A stretch of 64,000 nucleotides of DNA from Armatimonas sp. (GTDB taxonomy: Bacteria; Armatimonadota; Armatimonadia; Armatimonadales; Armatimonadaceae), in contig JASGJG010000001.1 in NCBI GenBank assembly GCA_049840835.1, positions 199,282 through 263,281 on the forward strand. Reading direction: 5' to 3'. This document shows, piece by piece, positions 6,764 to 61,993 of this stretch; position 1 is the first letter of the stretch, and the number at the start of each line of letters is the position of its first letter. Under the pieces are notes generated by a model. The model saw only the letters and a list, made by a program, of their open reading frames with translations, was not told the origin of the DNA and did no database searches. Position numbers and translations under genes: made by a program.

Positions 6764-6769
6764 ATGGTT

Positions 6770-16372: not shown

Positions 16373-16412
16373 GCGATGTCTCCAATAAATATCGAGCCCG
16401 TGCCGATTCGTG

Positions 16413-16536
16413 CCAGGACGGTAAACGTCCGGCTATAGGCACTTCGTGCCGTCTCCCTGCAGGAGGGGTTTGGCCTGATTTGGCCGCAGGCCACGGCGGG
16501 CTTGTCCGCCACATAGCCGGACGTTTACCGTCCTGG
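16413..16536 (-). ncRNA. perfect 24-nt inverted repeats flanking a 76-nt multi-hairpin core, 40 nt upstream of RT start: candidate compact retron msr-msd (a1/a2-like repeats) or RT-operon regulatory structure
   Basis: ccaggacggtaaacgtccggctat (16413..16436) is exact reverse complement of atagccggacgtttaccgtcctgg (16513..16536); core contains small hairpins ggcgg..ccgcc, ggcc..ggcc, ctcctgcaggag. Confidence 0.45.
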
Positions 16537-16557
16537 AAACAGGAGCCAGATTCGTCA

Positions 16558-17733: not shown

Positions 17734-17738
17734 GTCAG

Positions 17739-40413: not shown

Positions 40414-41783
40414 ACAGACTCACGCTCAATATTCACGGTCTCCGATTCTTGCGACGAGAAGCCCAGAAGGCTTCGTGTCAGCGCTCCGCCGCCATAGACC
40501 ATCTCTCGGAGGGCTATGTCCATGTGTGAATCGGAGACTTGAATAACGCCGTCAGTAACATCGCCCTGCTCTGCGGCAATCATAGCGGCTTTGCGAATCA
40601 GCTCCTGAATAAACGCAGGGCTTGCGCCTGCGGTTCGTTCCACGACCTGGCCTGGCTCTTTCAGACTCAGGGTCAGCCCCTTGCTATAAAACGAGAGCAA
40701 GCGCTGTCGGCACTCGGCGTCCGGCAAGGGGAACTCTATCGCCTGATCGATACGCCCAGGGCGTGCGGCAATCGCGGACTCAATCACCTCGGGGCGGTTG
40801 GTTGTGAGTAAAAACAGAACTTCCAGGTTGCTGGAAAGACCGTCCATCTCGTTCATGAGCTGGTGTAGCGTTATCTGATAGGCTGGATGTCGCTTTTCAT
40901 CACGCTCACCTGCAATCAGGTCTACGTCTTCCAGAATCACCAGGGCCGGAGCCAGTAGGCGGGCAAGCTGACAGCACTCCTTTATCAAGCCAAGCTGGTC
41001 AGCAGAGATAAGAATGGTCGTAACATTGGGCAGGGCTTGCGCCAGCCACTTTGCCGTGTAGGTCTTGCCAGTGCCTGGCTTGCCATGGAGCAGTAGACCG
41101 CGCTTGAGTGCCCGTCCACTTTGTCGCAGAAGAGCGACATTCTGGAAGTAGCGAACAGTATTGCGCTCCAGCATCTCCAGAGTGGCTGCTGGCAGAATAA
41201 TCTCTTCACGCTCCACCCTGGGAAATCGATGGAAACGGAGAGCAGAGAAACCGGAGCGACCCGGCATCCGAGCGTCGCATTCCAGAGAGAGCGCTTTGCC
41301 ACGATAGACATTCGCTTCGGCAATCGCAACACGGACTTTCTCCAGGAAGTCACTCGCAAGCTCTGGTGAGGTAGTCAGTACCTCCATCTCCAGCCCGTGT
41401 GTCATCCGGTCAGAGCGCACGTGCGCTGCTATAAGACCTACTGAATCTTTAATAAGGTGGATTCCGTTCTCCACGCAGCGCATCTGGCTGTTGACATCAA
41501 TATCTACTTCACGGTAATCGGGCGCAGTAACTGTAGCCTTGGTACTGAAGAGAGCCCGTAACTCGTTATAAAAAAAGCTCTGCTCAGAGATATAGCCAAT
41601 GGCTCGATAGCTAGCACTGGTCTTTTCGGCATATCCTGTAATAGCTCGTTCCAGGTTGGGTAGGTCCACCATAGAATAGGAGCGGCTTACTATAGGCAAA
41701 TTGCCGACATCTTCTCCAAAAAACTGAGTTAGCTCTGATTCCAGAGACGCACCGGATTTGTTCCCAGGCATAAATCGCATCAT
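40410..41783 (-). CDS. AAA+ ATPase family protein
   Basis: 457 aa; Walker A LLHGKPGTGKTY, Walker B ALVILEDVD, arginine finger region. Confidence 0.8.
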   Translation of the reverse strand: MMRFMPGNKSGASLESELTQFFGEDVGNLPIVSRSYSMVDLPNLERAITGYAEKTSASYRAIGYISEQSFFYNELRALFSTKATVTAPDYREVDIDVNSQMRCVENGIHLIKDSVGLIAAHVRSDRMTHGLEMEVLTTSPELASDFLEKVRVAIAEANVYRGKALSLECDARMPGRSGFSALRFHRFPRVEREEIILPAATLEMLERNTVRYFQNVALLRQSGRALKRGLLLHGKPGTGKTYTAKWLAQALPNVTTILISADQLGLIKECCQLARLLAPALVILEDVDLIAGERDEKRHPAYQITLHQLMNEMDGLSSNLEVLFLLTTNRPEVIESAIAARPGRIDQAIEFPLPDAECRQRLLSFYSKGLTLSLKEPGQVVERTAGASPAFIQELIRKAAMIAAEQGDVTDGVIQVSDSHMDIALREMVYGGGALTRSLLGFSSQESETVNIERESV

Positions 41784-46016: not shown

Positions 46017-48568
46017 TTCGCGGGAAAAGTGACACCCTCTAACCAGCGAGGAACATCATCGAGCGGAATGGCTTTCAGGTCTAGCAAAAAGCGATCGGCG
46101 TCTCTGCTCTGTGAGAACACAGCACGGGCCAGTGCTTCTGGACCATCCGGGGTGGCGGGTAGCCCAAGCCACAGTGGAGTTTGAAGAAACTGGCCAGGTG
46201 TACAGGAAACATAGTGCATCGTCCGTGCGGGGGAGGTCGCTGCTCCGGCGGGTTGCGGAATAGGGCGGTCCCAAACTGTAAGGTTCCCGGAACCAGAACC
46301 TGGCTGCTCTATCCAGAGAGGCAGCATGGCTGAGCGAGCCCGTAGGTTCGTAAACAGCTCAGGCAGAAGGGCGTTTACTTTGGCCTCCAGAAACTTCTGC
46401 CAGTCTTTCTGCAACCGTCTCCCTTCGTCTGGCGCGATGCCAAGGTTGATAGGGCCGTTGGGCATGACCCGAATACCTGGTCCATGTGCGTTGGGAGCTA
46501 CCAGAGAGATACCCGAAAGTTCACCACTGGAAAAGAAGGGGCCATAAAGTAGGCCTGCATCGAGGTCAAGTGGGTCGGCACCTGTCTGCCGTAGAAACGC
46601 CAGCCGATTTCCTGGCCGTCCGCCAAGTCCTCTCGAGCAGATTCATAGCGCGCCGGAAGCTTACTGTAGTAGCCCATTGGGGCGGTTTCTACCACCGCCA
46701 ATCCAGCCAGACCCTCCAGGGTGGCTAGAGTGCTCAGGCGGGTACGGAGTTTTTCGGTGACCCCTGGTGCATCGGGAGCGATCCATTCCAGCGAGGTCCC
46801 TTGCAAGTGTGAGGGGGATTGTGCAGGTTGGCGTCCTCCTGTCAGGCGCTCATCTCGGTCGGGTGCCTGGGAGTCGGGTGACGTAGTCAGTAAATGCACC
46901 AGCGCACCAACGGCAACCTTTTGTGTTTTTCCTTCGGCCAGAGCTGCCGTAAGTAGGGCTTTTTCTGAGGCGCTATTGGTAGCAAGAGGCAGTGCTAGCC
47001 AGAGCTCAGGGATATGGTGTGTCGCCGCTAGCTGAACAGCGCGGCGGGCAGACTCCGGAGTGTCCACTCTCAGTAGCAGCGAAGGCGCGCGTTTCAGAGC
47101 GATTTGTTTTGGAAAGACTGGTGTGGAACTGTTCGCGCCCTGTGTTGCCGATTGGATAATCTGGGTCAGTCTGCCATCACGTACTGCTGCCCCATTGGGC
47201 AGAAGCAGTTGACCTTCTAGGGGAGTGCTTATCTGTACGGCATCAGGCACAAAACTATTCGCAGTGACGGGTACCCCATTGATACTGAAAGAGGTATTTA
47301 TGGAGGTTATGGAAATTCCATTAGCGGTGGTAGTGGTATCTTCCGGGCTAAATCCCTTCCGCCGTTGATCGACTAAGGCACGAATCTCTGGCGGGAGTTG
47401 AGATACCGAATAGCGGCCTTCCGTCTTGCCTGCCAGACTTCCTACTGAGGGAGCTTCCGGAAGTGTCCAGCTAATGCGCGTAGATGTGATGTCGCCTACT
47501 TCTGAAATGGCGGAATCTACCCATTTTTGTCTTTGAGCTAGGCGAACGCTTACTGGCTCCAGATCGCCCGTAAGCACCCAGGGACCGCCTTCTATGCGGC
47601 GGAAGGTGCCGGTGAGGGCATAGGCCAGTCCCTGTAAAACATCTCCAGCGCGTGCGGAAGTACCCAGGAAATGGACCCTATACAGAGCAAGCCGTGGGTC
47701 TACATAGAGCTCTACTCCTGTGCGCTTTGCCGCCAGCGCTATGAGCTCTCCTACGTTTTTTGCACTCTCTGGCGAAAGGGAAGCGTTTAGCTCCGATGCG
47801 CCATAGTTCAAATCCGAGCGTTTAAGCTGATTCGGTACATCGCGGTAAAGCACGGAACCCAGCAGAGTGTTGTTATCCGGGTTCTGCTGGTAGTAGGCTA
47901 CCGACCAGAACGTTTCAGACGGTAGAGTTACTGCCTCTCCTCTTGCTTTTTGTAGGGCAGGCTCCTGGAGGATGAGCCGGACAGTAGGCGTACGTACTAC
48001 ACGCAGGCGAACGGCATTGCGGTCACTATCCGAGAGTACAGGTGGCTGGGGCGGCTGCCCAGCTCCAGGAATTAGAATCGCCCGTGTATCCAATCCCAGC
48101 GGCGTGGGTAATGAGGCAAGGAATAGCCGCTGTTGATCCAGGTTGAGGTCCGGAAGTCCCAGCCCCTGCTCGGAGAAAAGCGCTTTTTGCTGAGACTCTT
48201 TCAGCGAGGCCAGAAGGCGCAGGCGCCGTTCTCCAAAGGGGAGAGCCTGCTGCCATATCGGGCTTCCGTGTCGGTTCCGGAAAAAGGCGCATCGTCTGCG
48301 GCACCCAGACCGTTAAGCGTCCTGCTTTAGCACTTTTTAGATCTGAGGAGGCAGTCAGGTCCTCGGGGGTCCAGGAGTCCGCTTGAGGGGATTTAATCGC
48401 TGTCGCTAGAGTATCGACAATAAGCAGCGGGCCTCGCTTTGCCGTATCCCAGCGCAGTTTCGGTAACTCATCGGAGAGCTTCTGGGCCTGAGCGTTTAAG
48501 GGCAGTAAGGTGAAGGCGACGAATAGTACTATGGCATGCCGCATAGGCGAGTATACCAGGAAATACAC
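46013..48568 (-). pseudogene. degraded paralog of gene 48580..51084, broken into three ORFs (48026..48568, 46498..48093, 46013..46465)
   Basis: The three ORF products align in order with N-terminal, middle and C-terminal parts of the intact 864-aa neighbour (e.g. ..LPLWIEQP.., ..AIPLDDVPRWLEGVTFPA..). Confidence 0.6.
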
Positions 48569-48579
48569 TCCTACTTTCT

Positions 48580-51084
48580 CTAAGGAGCAGCGGGAAAGCT
48601 AACTCCTTCCAGCCAGCGAGAAACGTCTTCCAACGGAATTGCCTGCAGATCCAGAAGAACCTGCTCAACACCATCGGCCTGCGTAAATACGGTGCGTGCC
48701 AAGGCCTCGGCGCCATCGGGAGTGGGGCGCCAGGAAGAGAGATACTGTCCGGGAGCACAGATTATATAGCGCATCGTCCGCGCCTGGGGAGCAGGCGTGG
48801 AAAACGATTGATTGGCTTTGTCCCAGACTGCCAGACTCAATAAGTCACCCACAGCCGGCTGCTCTATCCACAGAGGCAGAGCTGCCGAGTGGGATCGCAC
48901 CACGGGAAAAAGTCCCTGACGCAGGGTGTCTATTCGGGCGCCCAGAAACTGCTGCCAGTCTTTCATAAGCCGCTTGCCTTCGTCGGTGGCTGCGGTGGCC
49001 ACATGGATACTATTCGGACCGACGGTCACCCCAGGCCCATGGGCATTGGGAGCGAGCAGAGAGACACCCGGAACCACAACCCCTATATGGAACGGTCCAA
49101 AAAGGATGCCCCTATCCAGATCAAGCGGGTCTGCCCCGGTGCGCCGCAGGAATGCCAACCGATTCCCCGGTCGCCCCCCGAAGTCATAGCGGGTGGAGTT
49201 GGAGAAGAAGGAGGGTTTGGGGGAGTACCCTGGCGGAGCGGTGTCAACAAGGGCAAGTCCTGCCAGCCCTGGTAGACCCGCCAACTCGTTTATCCGTGCG
49301 CGTACTTTCGCGGTTACTCCCGGTGCATCCGGGGCAAGCCACTCGAAAGCGGTCTTAGGAAGATAGGGGGATGGTTGGTCGGGTTCACGCCCACCGGTCA
49401 GGCGCTCGTCTCTATCCATCGCTTCTGGATTCGGAGTGGCCGCGAGCAGGTGTAGCAGGGCACCCACGGTTACTTTCTTTGTCTTTCCCTCTGCCAGGGC
49501 GGCAGAGAGAATCGCTTTCTCGGTGGCAATATCGGCGGAAAGCGGCATTGCCAGCCACAGGTTAGGCAGATGGCGCTCCGCCGCGAGCCGAACCAGACGC
49601 CTAGCTGTCTCCTGAGTGTCGGCCTGTAAAAGCAATATGGGAGGGCGCTTTAGAGCTACTTGTTTTGGTGGGGGCGGAGGCTCGTCTTCCACCTGTTCTG
49701 GGTCCAGGTCAGAAACAATTTGCCTCAGTGTCGCATCGCGCACAAGTGTGCCATCAGGGAGAATCAGCTCTCCCACCAGTGGTGCTTCTATCTGTACAGT
49801 ATCCGGCGTAAAGCTCTCGGCAGTAAGTTTGATTTTGTTGAAGCTCGCGGAGTAATCAGGGCTGTCGTAGCGGTTGCGAAAGGCTTCGACCTGTGATCGA
49901 ACATCGGGTGGAAGCTGCGCCAGAGGCTTTTTACCGGCGGATATACCGCTCAGGCTTCCCACGGAGAGAACCTCCGGTAGCGCCCAGGAGATTCGCTTCT
50001 CCTTCAGTTTGCTGGCTTCGGCAAGCGCGGGAGCGGCCCATGCCTGTCGCCGTGCCAGGCGAGCCAGAATCGGTTCCTTATCCACAGTAAGGACCCAGGC
50101 CTGCCCCTCCACCCTCCGAAACGTTCCGGTAAGGGCATAGGCAAGAGCCTGCAGAACATCTCCCACTCGCGCCGAGGCGCCCACGGAGTGCACGCTATAC
50201 CGAGCTAGTCTTGGGTCTACATACAACTCAGCGTTAGCTAGTTTCGCCGCCCGCGCTACCAGGTCGCCTACTGTCTTTGCTCCTTGCAAGGAAAGAGGAG
50301 CATCTAACTCTGGGGCCGCGTAGTTCAACTCCGAGGCCTTGGGTTGGTTCGGCACATCGCGCACCAGAGAGGAACCCAGCACAGTGTCGGTTGGCTGTTT
50401 GGGAGTGTTGTAAAGAATAGACAGATCTGGTTCGGAAGAAAGGACGATAAGCGGACCCTCTTCTTTTTGAAGCTCCGGCACCTGAAAGACCAGGCGAGTT
50501 CGAGGAGAGCGCACTACGCGCAGGCGAATCGCAGCTCGTTCGTCTCCAGAGATTTGCCGTGGCCGAAATACGAATCCAGCTCTAAGAGCAGGAGTATAAG
50601 GGTTCAACTCTATCGGATCCGGCAGCGACGATAGAAGCATGCGCGCCTGGTCCGGATTGATGTCCTCCATACCCAATCCTCGCTCGGAGAACAGGGCTTT
50701 GCGCTGTGATTCCTTCAGAGAGACAAGCAGGCGCAGGCGTCGCTCGCGGAAAGGAATAAGCTCTGTTGCATCGGGTTGGCGGGTAGGAGCGGGGAAGGTC
50801 CGCATCATCGTCGGCACCCAGACAGTGAGCCCACCTACCGAGGCGCTTTTCAGGCCGGAGGCAGCCGCCAATCCCTGCGGTGTCCAGGAACCGGATACAG
50901 GGGAAGGCGAAGTCAGAGAGATAGATGTTGCGTCTACTAGGAGCAAAGGCCCTTTTGGGGCAGCATCCCAATTTAGCTTCGGTAGCTCTTCAGCAAGCTT
51001 CGGAGGTTCATCCCCGAGATTCTGAGCATATACGGGCAAAGACAAAAAAGTAAGTGCACCAAGTAATACTAGTATGTCTCGCAT
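48580..51084 (-). CDS. secreted hypothetical protein (intact paralog)
   Basis: Signal peptide MRDILVLLGALTFLSLPVYAQ; ORF track extends to 51174 but likely start is MRD; unknown function. Confidence 0.6.
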   Translation of the reverse strand: MRDILVLLGALTFLSLPVYAQNLGDEPPKLAEELPKLNWDAAPKGPLLLVDATSISLTSPSPVSGSWTPQGLAAASGLKSASVGGLTVWVPTMMRTFPAPTRQPDATELIPFRERRLRLLVSLKESQRKALFSERGLGMEDINPDQARMLLSSLPDPIELNPYTPALRAGFVFRPRQISGDERAAIRLRVVRSPRTRLVFQVPELQKEEGPLIVLSSEPDLSILYNTPKQPTDTVLGSSLVRDVPNQPKASELNYAAPELDAPLSLQGAKTVGDLVARAAKLANAELYVDPRLARYSVHSVGASARVGDVLQALAYALTGTFRRVEGQAWVLTVDKEPILARLARRQAWAAPALAEASKLKEKRISWALPEVLSVGSLSGISAGKKPLAQLPPDVRSQVEAFRNRYDSPDYSASFNKIKLTAESFTPDTVQIEAPLVGELILPDGTLVRDATLRQIVSDLDPEQVEDEPPPPPKQVALKRPPILLLQADTQETARRLVRLAAERHLPNLWLAMPLSADIATEKAILSAALAEGKTKKVTVGALLHLLAATPNPEAMDRDERLTGGREPDQPSPYLPKTAFEWLAPDAPGVTAKVRARINELAGLPGLAGLALVDTAPPGYSPKPSFFSNSTRYDFGGRPGNRLAFLRRTGADPLDLDRGILFGPFHIGVVVPGVSLLAPNAHGPGVTVGPNSIHVATAATDEGKRLMKDWQQFLGARIDTLRQGLFPVVRSHSAALPLWIEQPAVGDLLSLAVWDKANQSFSTPAPQARTMRYIICAPGQYLSSWRPTPDGAEALARTVFTQADGVEQVLLDLQAIPLEDVSRWLEGVSFPAAP

Positions 51085-51146
51085 ACTGAAGTATACAAGA
51101 GGGTACAGGCTGCACAGATTAAGATTTTGCCGCGTACAATAGCGGA

Positions 51147-53150
51147 ATGAAACCGTACTATGGGCCGCTAGCACTCCTGCTGCTATTAGCGCTCACGGTT
51201 CTTTCTATGGATCCACCGTTGGCAGCGCCTACCAGTGCCCCAGAGAGTGAGTTCTCTGCGGAGAGGGCTATGACCCATGTACGTGACCTGGCACGGGCGC
51301 CGCATCCACCGGGTACTCCAGAGCACACCCACGTTCGCAAGGAGCTGATCAAGCGCTTTCAAGCGCTTGGGCTGACAGTACGTACACAAAAAGTGCGCGT
51401 GGTCCAGAAGTTTTCCAAAGAAGTACGTGTAGTTGAGGCACAGAATATTCTGGCGCGGTTGCCTGGGCAGGAAAAAGGGCCGGGGTTGATGCTCTGTGCT
51501 CACTATGACTCTCACCCCACCGGACCGGGGGCTGGCGATGATATGGCAGGAGTCTCCGTGCTCCTGGAGACGGCACGCGCTCTTGCATTAGAGAAACCAC
51601 GCCGCGATGTACTATTTCTGATTACCGATGCGGAAGAATATGGGCTGCTCGGAGCCGAAGGATTTGTAGACGATGCCCAGGAGCTAGAGGATTTTCCTCT
51701 GGTGCTGAACTTCGAGGCGCGCGGCGGCAGCGGTCCGGTCTTTATGTTTGAGACGGGGAAAGATAATGCCCCATTAATTGAGGCTCTGGCGCATACCCCA
51801 CGCCCACTGGCAACTTCGCTCATGTACGCGCTCTACAAAACCCTGCCCAACGATACAGATCTATCTGTCTTCAAGCGTGCGGGAAAGACCGGGCTAAACT
51901 TCGCGTTTGCCGAAAGCTGGAGTCACTATCACACAGCGCTGGATACCCCGGAGCGTTTAGACGCGCGAAGTGTGCAGCATCAGGGAGACTACGCCCTGGC
52001 TCTGGCCCGGCTGCTTCCCGGTACAGTTACAGAGAACAAGGGCGATGCTATCTACTTCGATCTCTTCAGTCGGCTTCTGGTTCGCTATCCCGAGTCTCTG
52101 GTCTGGCCACTGACGGCGCTGGGATTGGCGGCTTACCTCTGGGCGATACTCTCTACTCGGCGCGAGGAAAAGTTCTGGCGCAGCTGGCTAATCGGTATCG
52201 GGCTGGGGCCGCTGGCGCTTCTGAATGGTGCGGTTGTAGCGGTGTGCTTCGGGTTTCTGATAGGGCCACTCCGCGCCGGGGCTCCCTGGCGTGACCCCTA
52301 TGGCGCCCGCTGGCTAGAAGCCGCACTCTTCTTATTGTCACTGGCTGCGGCGCTGGTTCCACTGGGAATCGCACTACGAAAACAGTCTGCAAAGCCACCG
52401 ACTCTGGGAGCGCTGCTCTGGTGGGTACTGCTTCTGCTGGCGACTACTCTATGGCTACCAGGAGCTAGCTATCTGTTCCTCTGGCCGTTGCTTTTGGCTA
52501 CTCTAGGGCAGCTACTACGCCCCCATCCGGTATTGGCAATAGCGGCCAGTGTTCCAACGGTGGTATTGCTAACCCCGGTCTGGCATGGGCTGGCGCTGCT
52601 ATTAGGCTTCTCGCTGCCGCCACTGTTGGGTGGTCTAGTGGGGTTAGGATTGCTGCCACTGCTCCCGGTACTGGAAGGGCTGAAGCCGCGCGGGCTCTAT
52701 CTATTGGCTGGGGTAGGCGCTCTCTGTATACTGGTCGGTTGGCTGGGATTCCGTACCAGTGAGCGCTATCCACGTGTGGTCGCGGATTCCAAAGAGCAAA
52801 GCGCTCCGGCAACACCTAAAGCCACGGTAGTGCCGGGCAAGCTGACGCTGGCTCCGGCTCGCAGTGGATTCGAGCTGAGCGCCTTTACGAAGACAAAGGT
52901 TTCCAGCGCTATCTTAGATGGCAAACTGCTGCCACTGATAGACGGGAAACTGGCTCTGCGATTCTTAGCGCCCCCGCCCACCGGATTTGTGCTGCAGATA
53001 GACGCTCCCTTGGAGACAACAGTGACTGTGGGAGAAGACATTTTAAAGACCGACACTTCATTGCCGCCGAATAGCATCGTCGCGCCGGGGCCGTTTCCAG
53101 GGAATCGGTTACAGTATCGACGTAGCGTGACGCTACCGGCCCAGCCGTAA
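51147..53150 (+). CDS. M28-family peptidase fused to C-terminal polytopic membrane domain
   Basis: signal peptide; M28 zinc-ligand blocks LMLCAHYDSHP and ITDAEEYGLLG; then ~8 TM helices. Confidence 0.75.
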   Translation: MKPYYGPLALLLLLALTVLSMDPPLAAPTSAPESEFSAERAMTHVRDLARAPHPPGTPEHTHVRKELIKRFQALGLTVRTQKVRVVQKFSKEVRVVEAQNILARLPGQEKGPGLMLCAHYDSHPTGPGAGDDMAGVSVLLETARALALEKPRRDVLFLITDAEEYGLLGAEGFVDDAQELEDFPLVLNFEARGGSGPVFMFETGKDNAPLIEALAHTPRPLATSLMYALYKTLPNDTDLSVFKRAGKTGLNFAFAESWSHYHTALDTPERLDARSVQHQGDYALALARLLPGTVTENKGDAIYFDLFSRLLVRYPESLVWPLTALGLAAYLWAILSTRREEKFWRSWLIGIGLGPLALLNGAVVAVCFGFLIGPLRAGAPWRDPYGARWLEAALFLLSLAAALVPLGIALRKQSAKPPTLGALLWWVLLLLATTLWLPGASYLFLWPLLLATLGQLLRPHPVLAIAASVPTVVLLTPVWHGLALLLGFSLPPLLGGLVGLGLLPLLPVLEGLKPRGLYLLAGVGALCILVGWLGFRTSERYPRVVADSKEQSAPATPKATVVPGKLTLAPARSGFELSAFTKTKVSSAILDGKLLPLIDGKLALRFLAPPPTGFVLQIDAPLETTVTVGEDILKTDTSLPPNSIVAPGPFPGNRLQYRRSVTLPAQP

Positions 53151-54068
53151 GGTTTGCTGCTCTGGTTCGGTAGTGGTGTAGGTGCCTACACCGACTGCCT
53201 GGGCCAGCTCTTCTTGAGCGGCCGCTACAGAGGCGGCTTCGCGAGCCACTCCCTGCACTTGCTCGGCTAGGGCAGAGAATCTCCCTATACCCAGGCTACT
53301 GGCAGCTCCGCTGGTGCGTGCCAGCGCAGGCAGGGCCGCACGACAACCCTCTATCTGGGCCAGCACTTCTTGCCGGAGTGTGCGGGTGCGGCGGGCGAGT
53401 TTCAGAGCGTCCGTGGTAGCCCGAGCACGCCGCACCGTGGCCTCCGCCTGCCGTTGTAGCGAGGAAGCAATGACTTCGTCTTTTTCACGCCGGGCACGTA
53501 TGAGAAGAGTCTCGGCATCCACTACCAGGTCCGCCACATCGATGTCGGGCAGCTCGGCAGGAGCGGGCAGGTCACTAACGGCGTCGCCCAGAGCTTTCAG
53601 GGTGCGGCGTAGCTCGTTGGCCGTGCTTTCTTCACTGACCTCTAGCTCCCGCATCTGTTGCGCTAGCTTTACAAACGCTTCTTCCAGTCCATCGCTGACT
53701 TTGGGCATAGGTAGCGGGCGACCAATAAGACTTGCCAGAAACGCTACCGGAGCGGGAATGTCGAACGCTTTCTGTGAGGCGGGCCGAATGAACTCTATTT
53801 CATCGTCCGTGACTGGGGCGGTTGTCAGTTGGCGGCGACCTCGCCAATCATTGTGCAGAAAACCGGCTCCCAGCGCTATCATCACCCCACCAACGGCAGC
53901 AACTATAGTGGCCTGAGAGAGCGCCCCGACGCTAAAGGTTCCGGCACCCACCACGGCGGTACTGATCATTCCGATTTTCTCGGCGGGGCTCATGGTCCGT
54001 ATTTCACGGCGACGATTGATGAGCGTGCTTTCAAATCCTGTGCCCAGGTCGGCGGGAGTGAGGTTCAT
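53133..54068 (-). CDS. membrane-anchored coiled-coil protein, paralog 1 of 4
   Basis: N-terminal M.L.P.DLG motif, Gly-rich TM segment, Ala/Arg/Glu-rich coiled coil; aligns with three upstream neighbours. Confidence 0.55.
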   Translation of the reverse strand: MNLTPADLGTGFESTLINRRREIRTMSPAEKIGMISTAVVGAGTFSVGALSQATIVAAVGGVMIALGAGFLHNDWRGRRQLTTAPVTDDEIEFIRPASQKAFDIPAPVAFLASLIGRPLPMPKVSDGLEEAFVKLAQQMRELEVSEESTANELRRTLKALGDAVSDLPAPAELPDIDVADLVVDAETLLIRARREKDEVIASSLQRQAEATVRRARATTDALKLARRTRTLRQEVLAQIEGCRAALPALARTSGAASSLGIGRFSALAEQVQGVAREAASVAAAQEELAQAVGVGTYTTTEPEQQTLRLGR

Positions 54069-55051
54069 CGGCGGAGTACCTGCTGTTGTGGTGTCTCTGA
54101 CTCTACCACGACCGGGCGAGGAGAGATACGGTCCACTTCGTTTTCTGCATCTATGGAACTGACTGCCTCTGCGGCTACACGCCGAACGTTCTCCGCCATA
54201 TGGGATAGGTCCGCCAGGGAGGAGCGTGCGGTATCCACGCTCAGCGCGGCGAGTCCTTCGCGCAGGGCCTCTATCTGAGCCTGAATCTCAGCTTTCAAGG
54301 CTGCTGTGCGCTTCCCAGCAAGAGCAGTGCGCTCCGCAGACTCGGCGCGGCGGCGTAAGGCATCCGCGCGCCGGGTGAACGAATCACTGGTCACTCGATC
54401 TGTCTCCGCGAGTGCCTGAGCATCTATAGAGTCGGCCTCCGCACGTAGATTATCCGTATCCACGGCAGAGGGGGCGACTTCCGGCAGAGAGTCCAGCGCC
54501 TCAGCGAGCGCGGAGATACTTTTGCGAACCTCGGAGGCGGGTGGATCCGGCAAGTTTGTGCGAATCGCATCGCGCACCAGCCCCAGAAACGTTCGCTCTA
54601 AATCGTCTTCTGATTTCTCTACCAGCGCGTCGATCTCGCTCACACTCAGTGGTTTCCGGTTCAGGTCTTTGAAAGCTGCCTGAGCAAAAGGACCGGCTCC
54701 CAGCGCGAAGAGCCCTGCGGTTGCCGCGGTCCAGCTTGCCCACCCGATAGCCGGGTCCAGCCCACTCTTCTTGCAAAGTATCAGGAAAACCATGCCCGAG
54801 AAGAAGCTACCCAGGCCGCCTGTTAGCCAGGTTGAAGCCTGCGTATGTGTGGAGGCGGCAGGATTCACACGGGCCGCCTGTGCCTCGGTCAATCCGCTCC
54901 CTTTCGCCCAGATGCGTCCCAGAAAACCCAATTTTGGTGGAGGCGGCTCCGCAGGCGTGCTGACGCCGGGCTGGCCATAGCCCGCCATCGCTCTTGCATA
55001 TACCGTCTGCGTATGGTGCCGGGCACGCAGGTCATACGGGAAAAGATCCAT
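54065..55051 (-). CDS. membrane-anchored coiled-coil protein, paralog 2 of 4
   Basis: shared blocks EIDALV..LERTFLGLVRDAIR, VTSDSFTRRADALRRRA, LKAEIQAQIEALREGLAAL; 4-nt start/stop overlap with neighbours. Confidence 0.55.
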   Translation of the reverse strand: MDLFPYDLRARHHTQTVYARAMAGYGQPGVSTPAEPPPPKLGFLGRIWAKGSGLTEAQAARVNPAASTHTQASTWLTGGLGSFFSGMVFLILCKKSGLDPAIGWASWTAATAGLFALGAGPFAQAAFKDLNRKPLSVSEIDALVEKSEDDLERTFLGLVRDAIRTNLPDPPASEVRKSISALAEALDSLPEVAPSAVDTDNLRAEADSIDAQALAETDRVTSDSFTRRADALRRRAESAERTALAGKRTAALKAEIQAQIEALREGLAALSVDTARSSLADLSHMAENVRRVAAEAVSSIDAENEVDRISPRPVVVESETPQQQVLRR

Positions 55052-55053
55052 AC

Positions 55054-56004
55054 TTAACCCAATCGTACCTTTTGCGGGGCGGAATCCAGCTCGTTACGGG
55101 CATCTGCCAGAGAGGTAGCTTCGGCAGCCACGCGCCGCGCAGACTCGGCCAGGTTCGCCAGCTCGCCAATGCCACTCTGTTCTGTACTCTGTACAGCTAA
55201 GCCGATTCTCAGGGCTTCGGTCTGTGCCACTAGCTCATCACGCAGCACTGCGTTGCGCCGCAGAGTCTGCTGGGAGCGGGAAATTGCATTTGCGGAGCGC
55301 TCGCGGGCATCTGCCTGGCGAATCAGAGAGTCGGAAACAGTCTGATCTGACTCCTGCATTCCCTTTTCGCGTAGCGCTTTCGCCTCTGCCTGCAGGGTTT
55401 CTGGAGCAACGGCAGCACTCTCTGGCGCAGCAGAGGGTAGCTGCTCCATAGCGTCACCCAGGGCACGCAGGGCGCTACGAAGCTCATTTTCCGCAGACTC
55501 GCTCAGGTTGCTCTGACGCAGGGTGTCCTTTATCAACTGGAAATAGGCGCGCTCCAGCGGGTCATTGGCAGCGGCCAGCAGGGCATCTAACTCCGCTTCC
55601 TGCAGGGGAGCCTTGCAGTCGCGGCTCAGCAGAAAGCGCGGCGGAAGCTGCCCAAGGGTGATACCCACGGCTGCCAGTACCGGAACCACTACAGCGACAG
55701 TGGAGAGACCGTGGGGCATTGCGGACAGCCCCATCATTCCCAGAGCGCCACCCCAGGCGCAAGAGAGCACCGTGCCAAAAGTAGAGAAGGATTGCCCAAC
55801 CCTGTCCATAGTCAGGGTAGCGGCAGGCTCTGTCATGCCGGTGCTGCGCTTCAGAAATCCCTGGAAAGGACCGAAAGCCGGGCCAGTCTGGTTCATCATG
55901 GCTCGGCGGCCATGGGTTCGGGAGCTTCCTACGCTTGCCGCTACACGCCGGGCGACAAGCTCTGCGCCCAGCTCCGGGCTGAGGTCACCGGGCAGAAGTT
56001 TCAT
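55054..56004 (-). CDS. membrane-anchored coiled-coil protein, paralog 3 of 4
   Basis: shared blocks ELDALL..LERAYFQLIKDTLR, VSDSLIRQADARERSA, LRDELVAQTEALRIGLAV. Confidence 0.55.
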   Translation of the reverse strand: MKLLPGDLSPELGAELVARRVAASVGSSRTHGRRAMMNQTGPAFGPFQGFLKRSTGMTEPAATLTMDRVGQSFSTFGTVLSCAWGGALGMMGLSAMPHGLSTVAVVVPVLAAVGITLGQLPPRFLLSRDCKAPLQEAELDALLAAANDPLERAYFQLIKDTLRQSNLSESAENELRSALRALGDAMEQLPSAAPESAAVAPETLQAEAKALREKGMQESDQTVSDSLIRQADARERSANAISRSQQTLRRNAVLRDELVAQTEALRIGLAVQSTEQSGIGELANLAESARRVAAEATSLADARNELDSAPQKVRLG

Positions 56005-56990
56005 CGGCGGCCTGCCTGGACTAACTGTGGGCCAGCGTCCAGTTCCGCTGTCGCACGTGCCAGCGAGGTCGCCTCGCCCGCCACAGCGCGTGCGGAGGTC
56101 GCCAGCTGGGTCAGCGCGGTTTCATCAGTATGTCCTGCGGTGTAGTAGGCACTCAGGCCGAGCCGTAAGGCTTCGATCTGCGCGGAAAGCTCCTCACGCA
56201 AGGCTGCCGCGCGTCGGAGACCGAGCTGCGAGTGTCCCAGAGCATCTGCTTGCCGTGCTAGCGCATCTGCCCGGCGCTCCAGAGACTCGGAGACAACGGG
56301 GTCCGCTTCAGCAAGCGCTTTTTTGTGTAGCGCCGCAGCGTCGGCACGGAGTGCATCGGCATCGGGTAGGTCGCCATCCATTACCGGCAGTGGTGGCAGA
56401 GATGCTATGGCTTCACCAACGGTTTTTATTGCGGAACGGACTTCATCTGCTGCTTTTTCCGGAGCGCCTTGAATTCGCACCGCCTCGCGCACCAGCCCGA
56501 GATAGGCTTTCTCTAAAGCATCGCTGGTTTCATGGAGTAGGGCATCTATCTCACCCTCGCTCAGTGGCGTACTTGCCCAGCGCTTCAGATACGCCCGGGG
56601 AGCCGTCAGGCCCGCGAAGATACCACCAACACCAGCCACGGCGAAGACCGAGCCCAGAATCAGCATGACAGTGCTATCATTGCCCCGGCCTGCCAGGCCG
56701 CCTGCCAGCATACCAATAGCCGGGCCGCCGAATCCGCCGCCGAATCCGCCCGCGAAGCCACCTACGATTCCACCGGTGAACCCGCGTGTAGCCGCAAGAA
56801 GCGCCGCGCCGGTTTCCTCATCTACATCCAAACCCTTGAGCCAGTAGCGGCCCAATGCTCCAATAGACGTGGGGGTTACTGTAGAGCGGGGAAACTGCGC
56901 TGCGCCCGAACGACTGACATAGGGAGCAACCCGCCCCAGAACAAGCTGCGCGCAGCGCTTTGAACCAAGGTCCGTGGGGCGGATATCCAT
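56001..56990 (-). CDS. membrane-anchored coiled-coil protein, paralog 4 of 4
   Basis: shared blocks EIDALL..LEKAYLGLVREAVR, VVSESLERRADALARQA, LREELSAQIEALRLGLSA; long GGFGGGFGG region. Confidence 0.55.
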   Translation of the reverse strand: MDIRPTDLGSKRCAQLVLGRVAPYVSRSGAAQFPRSTVTPTSIGALGRYWLKGLDVDEETGAALLAATRGFTGGIVGGFAGGFGGGFGGPAIGMLAGGLAGRGNDSTVMLILGSVFAVAGVGGIFAGLTAPRAYLKRWASTPLSEGEIDALLHETSDALEKAYLGLVREAVRIQGAPEKAADEVRSAIKTVGEAIASLPPLPVMDGDLPDADALRADAAALHKKALAEADPVVSESLERRADALARQADALGHSQLGLRRAAALREELSAQIEALRLGLSAYYTAGHTDETALTQLATSARAVAGEATSLARATAELDAGPQLVQAGRR

Positions 56991-57012: not shown

Positions 57013-57672
57013 TTAGCGACGAGTCATCACGATAATAATAATGGTCAGCGCCGCGATTCCGCCCAGTCCCAGCACCATCCAGTCGTAGGTGCCGAAGAAC
57101 GTGACCAGGAAGACCGCCGTGGCTCCGATAATGCCGAGAATGATTCCCAGTCGGGCCGCGCTGGAGGGATTGCCCTGTTTATTCACAGAGCGCGCAATTA
57201 AGTAGAAGAGAAAGGGAATCGCCAGGAGGCAGACCAGAATACCGATGCCCGCCTTGAGCCACTTATCGCTCACCGACGATACCGAGAACGTGTAGAACTT
57301 GGCCGCATCTTCCGGGTAGCGCGTGGTTTTACCCGTAGCAGTCTTTACCTCGAAGTAGCCGCTGTGCGCGCCCTTCTCAAAGCCATTGATAGCCCAGATA
57401 AGCGTAGCGCCGTTCTCCATGGTTCCTTCCATAGACTTAAAGTCGAAGGAAACACGGGTCGGGGTTTCGTTGATGAACTGGGCGCTCTTGATTCGGTCAC
57501 CGTCTTTATCGGTGTACTCCAGGCGCAGAGAGTAGGGTTTGCCTGGCTCATAGTCGCTCTGGAGCTTGAACTGCGGCTCAGAAGCTTCTTTGAGGGTGGG
57601 AGCCTGCGCAAAGACGGGCAGAACCATCGCCAGCATGGCGAGCAGCGTTACGAAAAGTCGAGTCTTAATCAT
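57013..57672 (-). CDS. exported protein with C-terminal membrane anchor helices
   Basis: signal peptide MIKTRLFVTLLAMLAMVLPVFAQA; two C-terminal TM helices. Confidence 0.5.
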   Translation of the reverse strand: MIKTRLFVTLLAMLAMVLPVFAQAPTLKEASEPQFKLQSDYEPGKPYSLRLEYTDKDGDRIKSAQFINETPTRVSFDFKSMEGTMENGATLIWAINGFEKGAHSGYFEVKTATGKTTRYPEDAAKFYTFSVSSVSDKWLKAGIGILVCLLAIPFLFYLIARSVNKQGNPSSAARLGIILGIIGATAVFLVTFFGTYDWMVLGLGGIAALTIIIIVMTRR

Positions 57673-57677
57673 GTTTT

Positions 57678-58865
57678 TCAGAAACTCTTGGCCGGGTCTA
57701 TGAGCTTGAGCCGTATCTCTTTGTCTGTCAGACTCACCCGAATCTCATCGCCATAGCGTACGACGGTGGGTTTGTCTAACGGCACTCCGTTGATAAAGAC
57801 TCTTGCGGCGGCATTTGGTTGCGGGTAGAGCATAAGCTGCCCGCGTGCACCCGTGAGTTTCCCTACCGGATCTTTTGTGCCAGCCAGTGGGTAGGCGTCG
57901 AAAGAGGCCGCAGCACCCTCACCGCCGAGCCGCACACCCACATTACCTTTGAGCTGAAAATCTTTCGGACTGCCCCCCGAGGAAAGCGCGACACGCAACG
58001 GCATAGGCTTGGGGTTCAAGAAGAAGTATGCCCCCGCTCCCAGAGCGAGCACGGCCAGCCCGCCTATAATGGCAGCGACTGGGGGACCATCTGGCTTTTC
58101 GGAGTTCGGTATCGGCGGTGGCGTGGTCTCAACAACAGGGGCAGGAGTAGGGGCATCCTTGGGCAAGCGCTCCTTGGGGCGCCCATTCTCATCTAAGCCG
58201 ATACCCACGCCAAACGTATGGTCCTTATACTTCAGCAGAAGTCGCTCATAGTCAGCGTTCTCCGTAGTCTTGGGATACTTATCCAGCCGCCCACCCGGAA
58301 TGTAGTACTTCAGGTAGGTCACGCGCTCCGGGTCTTCCGGCTTCGGTTCATCGTTGAACGAGTCCGTGAGCAGCACAATATACGAAGGCTTCGGCTCCGC
58401 GCCCTCTGCCAGCTTCAGAGCTTCATGGTGGGGCTTGCGGATATTGGTGCCAGCACCATTCTCCGGCTGCGTGGGCACCTGCGCGAAAAGGCTCTTTTTG
58501 TCGGACTCGCTCTGCAGGGTCTCATCAAAGACTTTCTTGTAGCCAGAACCGAAGGTGAACAGGGCGACTCTATCGCCTTTTTGAGCACCTTCGTTCAGCA
58601 GGGTATAGATGGCTTCGCGGGTGCGGGCCAGCATCCGGTCCTTTCTCATGGAGCCGGAGACGTCTAAGACCAGAAGCAAATTTTTTGGCGAGGTGGTCTG
58701 CATAGCATGAACCGCGTCGCCTGCCTCGCCAAGATCGGTATCCTGAGCATGAGTCGGGCTCATCCCCAGAATCCACAGCGCCCACAGCGCCAGCATCCAC
58801 CGTAAAGTTCGCACGATAGTCCATTGTACCGATACAATAGCCCGGTTTCCAAAGATGCTGGTCAC
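57678..58865 (-). CDS. von Willebrand factor A domain protein with C-terminal FHA-like domain
   Basis: MIDAS LLLVLDVSGSM; C-terminus ..VFINGVPLDKPTVVRYGDEIRVS.. FHA-like. Confidence 0.7.
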   Translation of the reverse strand: MTSIFGNRAIVSVQWTIVRTLRWMLALWALWILGMSPTHAQDTDLGEAGDAVHAMQTTSPKNLLLVLDVSGSMRKDRMLARTREAIYTLLNEGAQKGDRVALFTFGSGYKKVFDETLQSESDKKSLFAQVPTQPENGAGTNIRKPHHEALKLAEGAEPKPSYIVLLTDSFNDEPKPEDPERVTYLKYYIPGGRLDKYPKTTENADYERLLLKYKDHTFGVGIGLDENGRPKERLPKDAPTPAPVVETTPPPIPNSEKPDGPPVAAIIGGLAVLALGAGAYFFLNPKPMPLRVALSSGGSPKDFQLKGNVGVRLGGEGAAASFDAYPLAGTKDPVGKLTGARGQLMLYPQPNAAARVFINGVPLDKPTVVRYGDEIRVSLTDKEIRLKLIDPAKSF

Positions 58866-60174
58866 CTCTCGTTTCCTCTGGTTACTATCCCTGGGTGTAT
58901 TGCCGCTACTGGGAGCCTATGCGCTGCCGCCTCTAGGAACCCTGACCGCTCTCTGGAACCTTGCGCTGGCTACATTAGCCGTTATTGACTTCCTCCGCTG
59001 CCCGAAACCTATTGACGCACTGGAAGCAAGCCGCATAACCGACGACGTACTCTCTGTAGCTACTCAAAACGAAGTTGAGGTTCGGTTACGAAACTCCACA
59101 AACCATGCATTACGGGTTGTTTTACGCGATGAACCGCCGCCAGAGTTCGCTCTAACCGGAGTCCGGCAGAAAGAGTTGGCTCTAAAGCCGCGCGGAGAGT
59201 TTACGCTGACCTACTCGCTGACCCCACCTGCGCGGGGCAATTTTCGGTTCGGCGATATCTACGCCCGCATCGTAGGGCCATTGGGGCTAGTGATTCGGCA
59301 AGGGAAACTCAAAGATGGCGCGGCTCCGGTTGCAGTCTTTCCCAATATCAAGCAAATCGGAGAGTACGAGCTAAACCTGCGGCGCACCCAGCGGGCACGG
59401 ATGGGAGTGCGCCGCCTGCGCCTGACCGGTGGTGGGCGTGAGTTCAGCTCCCTGCGCGACTACACTCCCGATGATGAATTCCGGGTTATCGACTGGAAAG
59501 CGACCGCCCGGCGTGGCAAAGCCACAGCACGTACTTTTGAAGCCGAGCGTGCTCAAGATGTCCTGCTACTGATTGACAAAGGCCGACTCATGCGCCAGGA
59601 AATCGGCCACGTGCAGAAGCTGGATACCGTGATCAACGCCGCGATGCTGCTGGCCCACGTGGTGGTCAATGCCGACGATAGGATAGGTCTATTGCTTTTC
59701 GATGATGAAGCTCGGACCTGGGTACCCCCACATAAAGGCAAGTCACAGACCACGCACCTGCTGCATGCCCTGTACGCCACTCACGCCGACCCGGTAGAGT
59801 CCGACTATCGTGTGGCGTTTCGGCATCTGGCCGCCCGCTGGCGTAAGCGCAGCTTGATCGTGCTCTTTACCGACCTCGCCGACCCGGAGACCTCTGCCGT
59901 GCTGCTCTCAGAGATTGCGCATTTAAACCGAGCGCACTTGGTCTGCTGCGTGACCGTGCGTGACCCCTTGCTCTCCGAGCAGGCCCGCCAGTTCCCCAAC
60001 AAAATCGAGCATGTCTTTGAAAAAGCCGTAGCTTCAGAAACTCTGGCCGAGCGAAGAAAAACCCTGGCATTACTGGAGCGCCAGGGAGTGTTAGTGGTAG
60101 ATGCAGAGCCGAAAGAGCTTTCCGCCGAGCTGGTGGCCCGCTACCTCGCTGTGAAGCAGCAGGCTATGATTTAA
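58855..60174 (+). CDS. DUF58 domain protein
   Basis: N-terminal TM helices; signature GGREFSSLRDYTPDDEFRVIDWKATARRGK. Confidence 0.8.
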   Translation: MLVTSRFLWLLSLGVLPLLGAYALPPLGTLTALWNLALATLAVIDFLRCPKPIDALEASRITDDVLSVATQNEVEVRLRNSTNHALRVVLRDEPPPEFALTGVRQKELALKPRGEFTLTYSLTPPARGNFRFGDIYARIVGPLGLVIRQGKLKDGAAPVAVFPNIKQIGEYELNLRRTQRARMGVRRLRLTGGGREFSSLRDYTPDDEFRVIDWKATARRGKATARTFEAERAQDVLLLIDKGRLMRQEIGHVQKLDTVINAAMLLAHVVVNADDRIGLLLFDDEARTWVPPHKGKSQTTHLLHALYATHADPVESDYRVAFRHLAARWRKRSLIVLFTDLADPETSAVLLSEIAHLNRAHLVCCVTVRDPLLSEQARQFPNKIEHVFEKAVASETLAERRKTLALLERQGVLVVDAEPKELSAELVARYLAVKQQAMI

Positions 60175-60180
60175 GCTCAC

Positions 60181-60597
60181 TTATGAGTTTTTTTGTTGAG
60201 CAATCACATCGCGAAAAAGTACATAATGCATCATCTCGCCCAGGCTAAACACTATATGTGGTTTGGTCATATAATCCCCTGCTTCACCTGACAAAAAAGC
60301 TGCGGGTATATTCAGGGTGCCATCTTCTTTGAAATGTTGATTCAAATTCTCTGACTCTAATATCTCAGGTGGGTAATAAGAAACACAAAAGCGCATTTGC
60401 ATATCGTGATAGAGAAGCGGTGAGTCTACAATAGTTTTCTTGTCACAGATATTGCAATCGAAGATATTTATATTGCCCGAAAATAGCTTTTTCTTTAGCT
60501 CTGGATCAAGTGTGACGTTGATAGATTCCCATATAGTCATCTTTTGTTTCGAGCCGCAGTGAGGACACTGAAGTTCATGCTGTGCCATCTTAGACAT
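60181..60597 (-). CDS. CpXC-type zinc-ribbon protein, AT-rich gene
   Basis: 138 aa; CPHCG .. CNIC cysteine pairs; GC ~42% in a 60% GC genome. Confidence 0.5.
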   Translation of the reverse strand: MSKMAQHELQCPHCGSKQKMTIWESINVTLDPELKKKLFSGNINIFDCNICDKKTIVDSPLLYHDMQMRFCVSYYPPEILESENLNQHFKEDGTLNIPAAFLSGEAGDYMTKPHIVFSLGEMMHYVLFRDVIAQQKNS

Positions 60598-60718: not shown

Positions 60719-61993
60719 CTAGTGCAGAGTGCGGGTGAGTTTACCCTTCTGAATCCAGTCGTTCAGGGTGAAGCGCTTCGTGGCGATATTCGGGCCGCTG
60801 ATCTCCACCCAGCCCAGATACCAGTCGGAGCCGGGGTAGGAATCATCGCTACGAATGGTTATGCTCTGAATCTCTCCGATTGCCGGGAAACCTTTGAGAG
60901 TAATGGTATCTGTCTGATTGCGCTCAAAGGCGTTTCCAGAGATAAGCGGGTTCAGGCGGACTTCATTGATTTTCCCAGTTGCTCCCTGAATCGCCAGGAA
61001 GATGTTGGAGTCGGTTCCAGCCAGGAATTTGTCTCCGGTGTATACCTTCACTGTGTAGTTCGTGGAACCGATATTGGCCCCGGCAAGCTGAGCCGTGGTC
61101 AGGGTGGTTATCTTCTGGCGGCTTGTAGGAATCGTGATCGGGCCTACCAGATTGGTGGCTCCATTCAGCACTTGCTGGAGAGCAATGCGTACCTTGCCGT
61201 AGTTCGCTTCATCGGCAGTGAAGCGTCCGGGAAAGAAAAGGTCCAGAGACGAGCTATACGCCCCTATCTGCGCACGAATCAAGCCCGTAAGCAAGCCCCG
61301 AGCCGGAGTTGAGTTATCCAGCGCAATCTGGTGGAAGTATTTCCCTTTGCGGTCATCCTTCCACCCGGAGTCTTGCTGTCCACTGGCAGGGCTATAAGAG
61401 GCGAAAGCGGCATTCGGAGTGCGTTTCAGCGAGGTCGTCAGAAAGCTTTTCGCATAGCCGATACCATCCTCCAGGCAGCGCAGCGCACAGACCGGATCGA
61501 ACGGTGGGCGGTCCGGCTGGTGTCCATCGGGGGCATGCCCGAAGGGAACGGAGTAGGGGCTAAAGTTCGTGGGGTGGCTGTTCTCATGGTGCCGGTGCGC
61601 CCAGGTGTCCTGCTGGTAGTGAAAGAACACGCCTAGGCGCTGGAGTTTTTTCTGCGGATCCTGCTCACTGATAGCCTGATTCCAGAGGACCTGTTTGCGC
61701 GCTAAGACTTCGGCTGCGGTGCCATTTTGCGGAATGGAGTGCCACAAATGTTCCTCGGCCACATTGGGAATGATTCCACCCACTCCGCCATTGGCGACCG
61801 TGCCAGAGGAATCGTCCATGCCCTGGTCATAGCTGGCGACTACCAGCGCTTCTGCGTCTGTGAAGCCAGCCATACGGCACTGAACATAGGTCATGGTGAA
61901 GTGGGTGTCTTCTTCGTAGGCATAGGCTGGAGCGCCTGCCAGCGCGCTCAGCAGAGCGATACCTCCGAGAATAGATAGGGTTTTGACTCTCAT
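60719..61993 (-). CDS. secreted zinc-dependent phospholipase C-like N-domain + C-terminal PLAT/LH2 domain (alpha-toxin-like architecture)
   Basis: signal peptide; His-rich Zn-site blocks (YEEDTHF, DTWAHRHHE); C-terminal beta-sandwich ..KVYTGDKFLAGTDSNIFLAIQG..DWYLGWVEISGP.. typical PLAT. Confidence 0.65.
   Translation of the reverse strand: MRVKTLSILGGIALLSALAGAPAYAYEEDTHFTMTYVQCRMAGFTDAEALVVASYDQGMDDSSGTVANGGVGGIIPNVAEEHLWHSIPQNGTAAEVLARKQVLWNQAISEQDPQKKLQRLGVFFHYQQDTWAHRHHENSHPTNFSPYSVPFGHAPDGHQPDRPPFDPVCALRCLEDGIGYAKSFLTTSLKRTPNAAFASYSPASGQQDSGWKDDRKGKYFHQIALDNSTPARGLLTGLIRAQIGAYSSSLDLFFPGRFTADEANYGKVRIALQQVLNGATNLVGPITIPTSRQKITTLTTAQLAGANIGSTNYTVKVYTGDKFLAGTDSNIFLAIQGATGKINEVRLNPLISGNAFERNQTDTITLKGFPAIGEIQSITIRSDDSYPGSDWYLGWVEISGPNIATKRFTLNDWIQKGKLTRTLH

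Follow-up and report, generated by a model that had tools for sequence, protein, structure and literature searches.

Four consecutive genes on the minus strand of a 64,000-nucleotide stretch of Armatimonas sp. DNA (contig JASGJG010000001.1, positions 199,282 to 263,281; the whole stretch is hereafter called the window), here designated A to D, encode members of a protein family which is undescribed in the databases searched and has so far been seen in Armatimonadota only. As the family lies between a vWA-FHA protein and a tubulin-like GTPase in relatives, A-D are probably the membrane platform of a signalling or membrane-remodelling system. A more specific reading, to which about an even chance is given, regards them as subunits of a hetero-oligomeric inner-membrane platform in an Armatimonadota variant of the vWA/FtsZl1 systems, linking vWA/Ig-like parts to a cytoplasmic NTPase. 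While the protein family is undescribed, the type of system has been known from comparative genomics since 2010.

The four-gene array and its protein family

The array comprises four tightly packed, consecutive open reading frames (ORFs) on the minus strand, in the order A (56001-56990, 329 amino acids), B (55054-56004, 316 amino acids), C (54065-55051, 328 amino acids) and D (53133-54068, 311 amino acids), in agreement with a first-pass annotation made by a model from the sequence, which had listed four tandem paralogs of about 310-330 amino acids. The overlap of start and stop codons proposed there is present at the A/B and C/D junctions, where the start of the downstream gene overlaps the stop of the upstream one as ATGA, but not at the B/C junction, where the genes are separated by a 2-nt spacer (TAAgtATG). 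The 3' end of D overlaps by 18 nt with a convergent M28 peptidase gene. Identity among the four paralogs is 29-46% (B, C and D share 39%, 37% and 31% with A over the full-length alignment), and pairwise BLASTP E-values range from 2e-39 (A/B) to 5e-13 (C/D), which shows that their paralogy is no artefact of composition. The sequence blocks described as common to the four are found in A-C, while in D the first block is missing its E[IL]DAL part. D is the divergent member, as the match of the family hidden Markov model (HMM), which covers A with E=1.7e-101, is split in D into positions 1-28 and 78-325; the N-terminal motif and the C-terminal domain are retained, and the hydrophobic region differs from that of A-C. 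Protein A is 100% identical to QM758_01090, a "hypothetical protein" of an Armatimonas sp. metagenome-assembled genome at NCBI.

An exhaustive profile search over 1.84 billion protein cluster representatives recovered 281 family representatives at E<=1e-3, of which 201 also reach E<=1e-30; nearly all are about 310-385 amino acids long and match the profile from end to end; word-indexed homolog searches gave at least 14-15 members. The few named members come from Armatimonas, Armatimonadaceae or Capsulimonas, all of them Armatimonadota, and include proteins of the cultured Armatimonas rosea and Capsulimonas corticalis. Searches of A-D against Pfam, NCBIfam, PADLOC and PHROGs gave nothing above the cut-off (best E 0.01-0.65), no single Pfam family was matched in more than four of 126 members scanned, the family profile had no significant match among PDB sequences, and a Foldseek search of the PDB with a predicted structure of A returned nothing below E 0.5. 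The designation of the family as an unknown one is thus upheld, since none of these searches links it to a well-known annotated domain, and a phage or defence origin was rejected in the absence of any PHROG or PADLOC match.

The first 20 codons of A (56931-56990, minus strand) contain the N-terminal signature of the family, which reads from Met1 as M-[EDN]-[IL]-x-P-x-D-L-G-x-[RK]-[RW]-[HY]-[VI]-x-[LIV]-[VLI]-x-x-R in 129 full-length members, where P5 is conserved in 123, D7 in 118, L8 in 121, G9 in 101 and R20 in 127. B, C and D carry the same signature in their own first 20 codons (MDIRPTDLG in A, MKLLPGDLS in B, MDLFPYDLR in C and MNLTPADLG in D), with M1, P5, D7 and L8 invariant, whereas G9 occurs in A and D only. 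The N-terminal lipid-binding domain of DivIVA/GpsB proteins has the motif M-P-L-T-P-x-D-I...F...R-G-Y, followed by a coiled coil. A DivIVA/Wag31-like N-terminus, as suggested by M-x-L-x-P-x-D-L, was rejected, as a 26-residue N-terminal profile of the 129 members matched nothing in the PDB at E<=10; the DivIVA models of Pfam and NCBIfam did not match A-D (that of Pfam did not match the 126 members either), and in the AlphaFold2 model of A the signature precedes a variable linker of low confidence, unlike the coiled coil of DivIVA.

This model, built from an 18-sequence alignment (pLDDT 82, pTM 0.68), begins with a short helix at the N-terminus (pLDDT 86-89), followed by a linker (residues 28-38) which is disordered, by two long helices which are hydrophobic and rich in Gly (58-100 and 105-140) and by further helices at residues 145-154, 158-172, 178-197, 211-227, 231-284 (54 residues) and 290-318. 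The Gly-rich transmembrane segment of the first-pass annotation is therefore a Gly-rich hydrophobic region as described, but it is predicted by the model, and consistently by hydropathy, to form a two-helix transmembrane hairpin (residues ~58-140 of A) rather than a single segment. The C-terminal ~190 residues consist of about 50% A+R+E+L and are predicted to be helical, as had been stated for an Ala/Arg/Glu-rich C-terminus, and membrane-anchored helical proteins are thus supported. None of A-D has a signal peptide. As the first 55 residues have a net basic character and another basic stretch follows the second hydrophobic helix, the hairpin would adopt an N-in/C-in topology, placing the N-terminal motif and the helical domain (residues 145-318 of A) in the cytoplasm.

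For the history of the array, genes found by the family HMM in all fetched loci (the sample for gene context being 13 loci besides the window, with L001 from A. rosea and L011 from C. corticalis) were placed in a crude, unbootstrapped neighbour-joining tree. In this tree, the first, second and third genes of L004 cluster with A, B and C, respectively; the first gene of L002 also joins A, and genes of L006 and L008 also join C, while D belongs to a deep D-type clade with members in L001, L004, L005, L006, L008, L010 and L012. A D-type gene, whose product keeps the N-terminal motif and the C-terminal domain and differs in the hydrophobic region, is present in nearly every multi-copy array. Copy number varies from one (L002, L003, L007 and L011) to four (the window and L004), and the expansion to four genes is the derived condition. 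A recent origin of the copies by tandem amplification or gene conversion was rejected, since no DNA repeat longer than 37 nt is shared among the four genes; together with the identities of 29-46% and the one-to-one orthologs in L004, this points to an old, subfunctionalised set of paralogs and not to the recent expansion which the term amplification had implied. The heteromeric assembly proposed in the first-pass annotation is made plausible by the same subtypes (A/B, C and D), which have orthologs elsewhere, and by the recurrence of the D-type. The family evolves faster than its gene neighbours, at about 50-55% versus 62-85% identity between the same genomes; between the window and L004, A is ~50%, the vWA protein 70%, the 219-residue membrane protein 81% and the DUF58 protein 85% identical.

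Operon partners and gene context in relatives

A-D are the distal genes of a six-gene unit which starts with a vWA gene, followed after 5 nt by a gene for a 219-residue membrane protein, which itself lies 22 nt upstream of A. A scan for promoters and terminators gave consensus-level matches only, near the shuffled expectation. The vWA-FHA protein, the DUF58 protein and the small membrane protein had correctly been named as neighbours in the first-pass annotation, which overlooked that the vWA-FHA protein and the ~220-residue membrane protein are conserved partners of the family, and that a kinase and an FtsZl1/Tubulin_2 protein join them in relatives.

The vWA protein (57678-58865, minus strand) is predicted to contain a signal peptide, a vWA domain (Pfam VWA_2, E=1e-11), a Pro-rich linker, one transmembrane helix and a cytoplasmic FHA-fold domain. 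Its metal ion-dependent adhesion site (MIDAS) motif DxSxS is intact as DVSGS, and a crude regular expression finds DxSxS in 81 of 120 homologs. The mechanically called ORF begins at a GTG codon and overlaps by 11 nt with the start of the divergent DUF58 gene, while the NCBI version has 378 residues and is ~17 codons shorter; as a sigma-70-like match (58852-58823) falls inside this N-terminal extension (58814-58865), the shorter form is the likelier one and the true start is probably near 58814. The C-terminal domain (57678-57992, minus strand; ~105 residues) has the 11-stranded beta-sandwich of the FHA fold, with a faint sequence signal (Pfam FHA in 4 of 32 homologs; the FHA domain of EssC at E 0.24). 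As assigned by inspection of the alignment, an invariant G23-G24 takes the place of the expected G-R, and P-[VA]-A that of the expected S-x-x-H, while the N-G and G-D motifs are retained. The canonical phosphothreonine-contacting Arg and Ser thus appear to be replaced, and binding may be phospho-independent, as in the FHA domains of the YscD and EssC type.

The 219-residue protein (57013-57672, minus strand), predicted to consist of a signal peptide, a beta-rich extracytoplasmic domain of ~110 residues and three C-terminal transmembrane helices, matches no family in Pfam, NCBIfam or PHROGs. In L001, L002 and L004 its ortholog (52-81% identity) is directly flanked by the vWA gene on one side and by the family on the other, genes of similar size occupy this position in L009-L014, and it is accordingly a conserved operon partner. 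A vWA gene (~380-450 codons) and a gene for a membrane protein of ~220-250 residues are found directly upstream of the family in 10 of the 12 loci with a readable upstream flank (the window, L001, L002, L004, L009, L010, L011, L012, L013 and L014). The divergent DUF58 gene (58855-60174, plus strand; Pfam DUF58 E=2e-32), which encodes a vWA-like membrane protein, adjoins the module in the close relatives L002 and L004 only (80-85% identity) and not in L001, L009, L010, L011, L012, L013 or L014; it is therefore considered a syntenic neighbour which is probably no core part, and was dropped as a functional partner.

The gene which follows the array connects the family to the tubulin superfamily. 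Pfam represents the FtsZ-like proteins which Makarova and Koonin described by the model Tubulin_2 (PMC9871819), and a Tubulin_2 gene immediately follows the array in L008, L011 and L013 (E 1e-65 to 1e-70) and comes one gene later in L006. In Capsulimonas (L011), a Pkinase gene is followed by vWA-FHA, a 220-residue protein, a 288-residue protein which is a family member (E=1e-41) and a Tubulin_2 protein of 1123 residues (E 1.5e-69). L008/L009 encode a PQQ propeller, Pkinase, vWA, a 246-residue protein, three family proteins and a Tubulin_2+SHOCT protein in this order; L013 a kinase-like protein, vWA, a 230-residue protein, a truncated copy, a family protein and Tubulin_2+SHOCT; L006 three family proteins, one unrelated protein and Tubulin_2; and L014 a PQQ propeller, Pkinase, vWA, a 234-residue protein, two family proteins and a NACHT NTPase. 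A kinase gene is directly upstream of the module in L009, L011 and L014, with a weak kinase match in L013.

Several of these loci have features of their own. The NACHT NTPase of L014 (10332-12488; 718 residues, membrane-anchored) directly follows the array at the position of Tubulin_2/FtsZl1, which suggests that the two kinds of NTPase are perhaps interchangeable in this system. The PQQ_2 beta-propeller proteins of L009 (4683-6512) and L014 (2502-4367), of ~610-620 residues, are encoded immediately upstream of the Ser/Thr kinase and could serve this system as a sensor. The truncated copy in L013 (8100-8968) is an extra 230-residue copy of the C-terminal helical domain, which has neither the N-terminal motif nor the membrane hairpin; together with a 59-codon ORF, it lies ahead of the full-length copy of the family and of Tubulin_2. 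The ORFs scanned near the operon include no MoxR gene, and none was found beside the module in any related locus listed; the sole AAA protein found is encoded 17 kb away (40410-41783) and matches the classic AAA family. No GAP1 GTPase gene is nearby, and neither a diverged GTPase gene nor an OmpA-like one was observed.

Possible roles of the family

Recurrent predicted operons which combine FtsZl1 with MIDAS-intact, often membrane-bound vWA proteins were described by Makarova and Koonin in 2010, who also listed Ser/Thr kinases, GTPases, OmpA-like proteins and lineage-specific membrane proteins in them and proposed a role in membrane remodelling (PMC2875224), while Kaur et al. (2020) assigned both tubulin/vWA/GTPase neighbourhoods and STAND NTPases to the NTP-dependent conflict systems (PMC7159879). 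In the platform reading, each protein would combine a conserved N-terminal peptide of 20 residues in the cytoplasm with a variable linker, a Gly-rich two-helix hairpin and a cytoplasmic helical domain of ~190 residues, and the paralogs would form a hetero-oligomeric inner-membrane platform from at least one A/C-like and at least one D-like subunit. This platform would couple the vWA/Ig-like part which faces the envelope, as a sensor or adhesin, to a polymerising or oligomerising cytoplasmic NTPase, with the N-terminal peptide as a docking element for the putatively phospho-independent FHA domain or for the NTPase, and with the helical domains as a cytoplasmic scaffold. What the data establish is the paralogy, the limits of the family, its predicted architecture, the conservation of the operon, the FHA fold and, in relatives, the linkage to kinase and tubulin genes; topology, hetero-oligomerisation, the docking role and the biological output, which may be membrane remodelling or a threat response, are proposed from them.

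Several points weigh against this reading. No Tubulin_2, NACHT or kinase gene is present among the ORFs scanned across the 64-kb window, so that the link to tubulin and kinase comes from the orthologous loci, and in Armatimonas the system may function with no tubulin-like protein as its partner. L003 and L007 contain solo family genes with no vWA gene nearby. Taxon names exist for only a few family members, the putative topology is drawn from hydropathy and charge reasoning alone, and what the parent vWA/FtsZl1 systems do is likewise a prediction. No experimental function for FtsZl1 was reported in the literature searched.

The main alternative, though an unlikely one, is that the proteins are membrane-permeabilising effectors of a conflict or abortive-infection system, in which a signal passing through the vWA/kinase/FHA proteins and the NTPase would cause the glycine-zipper hairpins to form pores and depolarise the cell; the presence of several paralogs would then mean redundancy or diversification. 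This agrees with the GxxxG-type Gly-rich hairpin, the faster divergence of the family relative to its neighbours, the NACHT protein in place of Tubulin_2 in L014, and the PQQ beta-propeller and kinase upstream in L009 and L014, an arrangement which resembles sensor-vWA-kinase-FHA logic (PMC7159879, PMC13622651). Holin models are also matched (Phage_holin_3_6 in 4 of 126 members, best E 0.01; Phage_holin_3_3 at E 0.023 for C), but these matches are far below the cut-off and due to composition. Neither PADLOC nor PHROGs recognises the proteins, neither MoxR nor a GAP1 GTPase is encoded nearby, and the loci lie among housekeeping genes with no evident defence islands, while the conserved one-to-one orthologous subtypes look more like structural subunits than diversifying effectors.

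A bolder form of the platform reading, which is quite unlikely, takes the family for a novel type of membrane receptor to which a polymer of the tubulin superfamily would bind. Hetero-oligomers of A/C-like and D-like subunits would recruit or nucleate FtsZl1 filaments at the inner membrane when a periplasmic vWA ligand causes the FHA domain, acting independently of phosphorylation, to grip the N-terminal peptide. If true, it would provide the first mechanistic wiring diagram for the long-uncharacterised vWA/FtsZl1 systems.

It is very unlikely that the helical domains polymerise independently of the vWA-FHA protein as a PspA/IM30/ESCRT-III-like or BAR-like coat for membrane stress or shaping, the first of which relationships had been raised in the first-pass annotation. 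The membrane remodelling proposed for the parent operons (PMC2875224) would suit such a coat, but PspA and ESCRT-III proteins are peripheral rather than hairpin-anchored, and a relation to PspA/IM30 was rejected at the sequence level: hhalign of a 126-sequence profile against E. coli PspA (the query sequence was verified as such) gave a probability of 0.7% over 19 columns, the Pfam scan of the 126 members gave no PspA_IM30 or Snf7 match, and Foldseek scored Vipp1 at E 4.2. Variable surface or secreted proteins, the former also suggested in the first-pass annotation, or ClyA-like multi-component alpha-helical pore-forming toxins exported against other cells are hardly credible. The tandem ~320-residue paralogs with a central or N-proximal hydrophobic hairpin and long helices superficially recall the tripartite toxins of the ClyA family, and Foldseek does list SmhB and AhlB, but these were rejected as relatives (E 1.9-5.0, probability <=0.09, TM-score <=0.19), the absence of a signal peptide and the basic regions fit an N-in/C-in topology with the motif and helical domain in the cytoplasm, and the extreme N-terminus, which is the most conserved part, fits an intracellular docking peptide better.

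For the platform reading, the family adds to the FtsZl1 systems, whose operons are currently read as membrane-remodelling machines or NTP-dependent conflict systems, a defined and conserved membrane-embedded component placed exactly between the vWA-FHA protein and the NTPase. The finding contains no new principle and comes from gene context. Natural comparisons for the platform role are offered by copy number, which ranges from one to four, and by the downstream gene, which is tubulin-like, NACHT or none; as A. rosea and C. corticalis are cultured, genetics and localisation could be attempted.

Other features of the window and comparison with known systems

Elsewhere in the window, a minus-strand cluster (14975-21787) encodes a reverse transcriptase (14975-16372; RVT_1 E 3e-22), a protein with SWIM and BRCT domains (16558-17733), a 266-residue ORF and a 1083-residue ORF without a Pfam match (18536-21787), and may be a defence-associated or retroelement cluster. 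An 864-residue secreted protein without a Pfam match (48580-51174, minus strand) apparently has a second copy broken into three minus-strand ORFs, namely an N-terminal (48026-48568), a middle (46498-48093) and a C-terminal one (46013-46465, ending in WLEGV[ST]FPA); this broken copy (46013-48568) may be a duplicate with frameshifts or a pseudogene, or may reflect assembly errors. The low-GC patch at 6001-8000 (0.38 versus ~0.57 elsewhere), where a 584-residue ORF without a Pfam match is located (6770-8524, minus strand), may be recently acquired DNA. A CpXC-domain protein (60181-60597, minus strand) adjoins a 424-residue secreted protein (60719-61993, minus strand) with DUF6765 and a C-terminal PLAT/LH2 domain, the latter being mostly a eukaryotic domain. 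A 632-residue protein (31052-32950) with weak SPFH/Band 7 matches is of the membrane-scaffold type and unrelated to the A-D array.

Among membrane proteins of comparable design, chlamydial IncA has the same overall architecture, a bilobed hydrophobic hairpin with a cytosolic coiled-coil domain. It appeared in the PDB sequence search below the threshold of significance (E 0.11, over 40 residues of the coiled coil only), and Inc proteins differ in being type III secreted into a host-derived membrane, so that no relationship is claimed. EzrA is a membrane tether and regulator of FtsZ with a helical cytoplasmic domain. It resembles the family, as an analogy of working only, in its membrane anchor, its elongated all-helical cytoplasmic domain and its neighbour or partner from the tubulin superfamily, but EzrA has a single N-terminal transmembrane helix instead of a hairpin and acts with FtsZ instead of the proposed FtsZl1, and the two share no sequence relationship and no significant fold relationship.

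Modules of vWA, FHA and Ser/Thr kinase proteins are known from Sulfolobus (ArnA/ArnB; PMC6509490), from Deinococcus (DRA0331-0334; bioRxiv 10.64898/2026.01.23.701218) and from Actinobacteria, where the propeller-vWA-kinase-FHA pathway Esr was shown experimentally to sense threats (2026 preprint; PMC13622651). In the operon studied here, by contrast, the vWA and FHA domains are united in one polypeptide with a membrane span between them, the FHA domain apparently lacks the canonical phosphate-binding Arg and Ser, and no PP2C phosphatase or MoxR was found, while none of the three modules has the hairpin-helical family. The MoxR-vWA ternary conflict systems (Kaur et al. 2020) differ in that no MoxR AAA+ ATPase adjoins the vWA gene here.

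The closest counterparts are the vWA/FtsZl1 operons, to which the GTPase-centric systems with tubulin of Kaur et al. (2020; PMC7159879) are related. The operon of the window differs from them in the cytoplasmic FHA domain of its vWA protein, in the lack of a visible diverged GTPase or OmpA-like gene, in its four-gene array, and in that FtsZl1 and kinase genes are not within the 64 kb; the A-D family is absent by name from the listed accessory families, a distinction made by names alone. The window shares with these systems a MIDAS-intact secreted/membrane vWA protein; of the kinase and the lineage-specific membrane proteins, the latter are present (the 219-residue protein and A-D), while no kinase gene adjoins the operon. 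In L008/L009, L011 and L013 the likeness is fuller, as these loci combine in the same operon a MIDAS-intact membrane vWA protein, a Ser/Thr kinase and a long FtsZl1 with a C-terminal extension with lineage-specific membrane proteins without recognisable domains.

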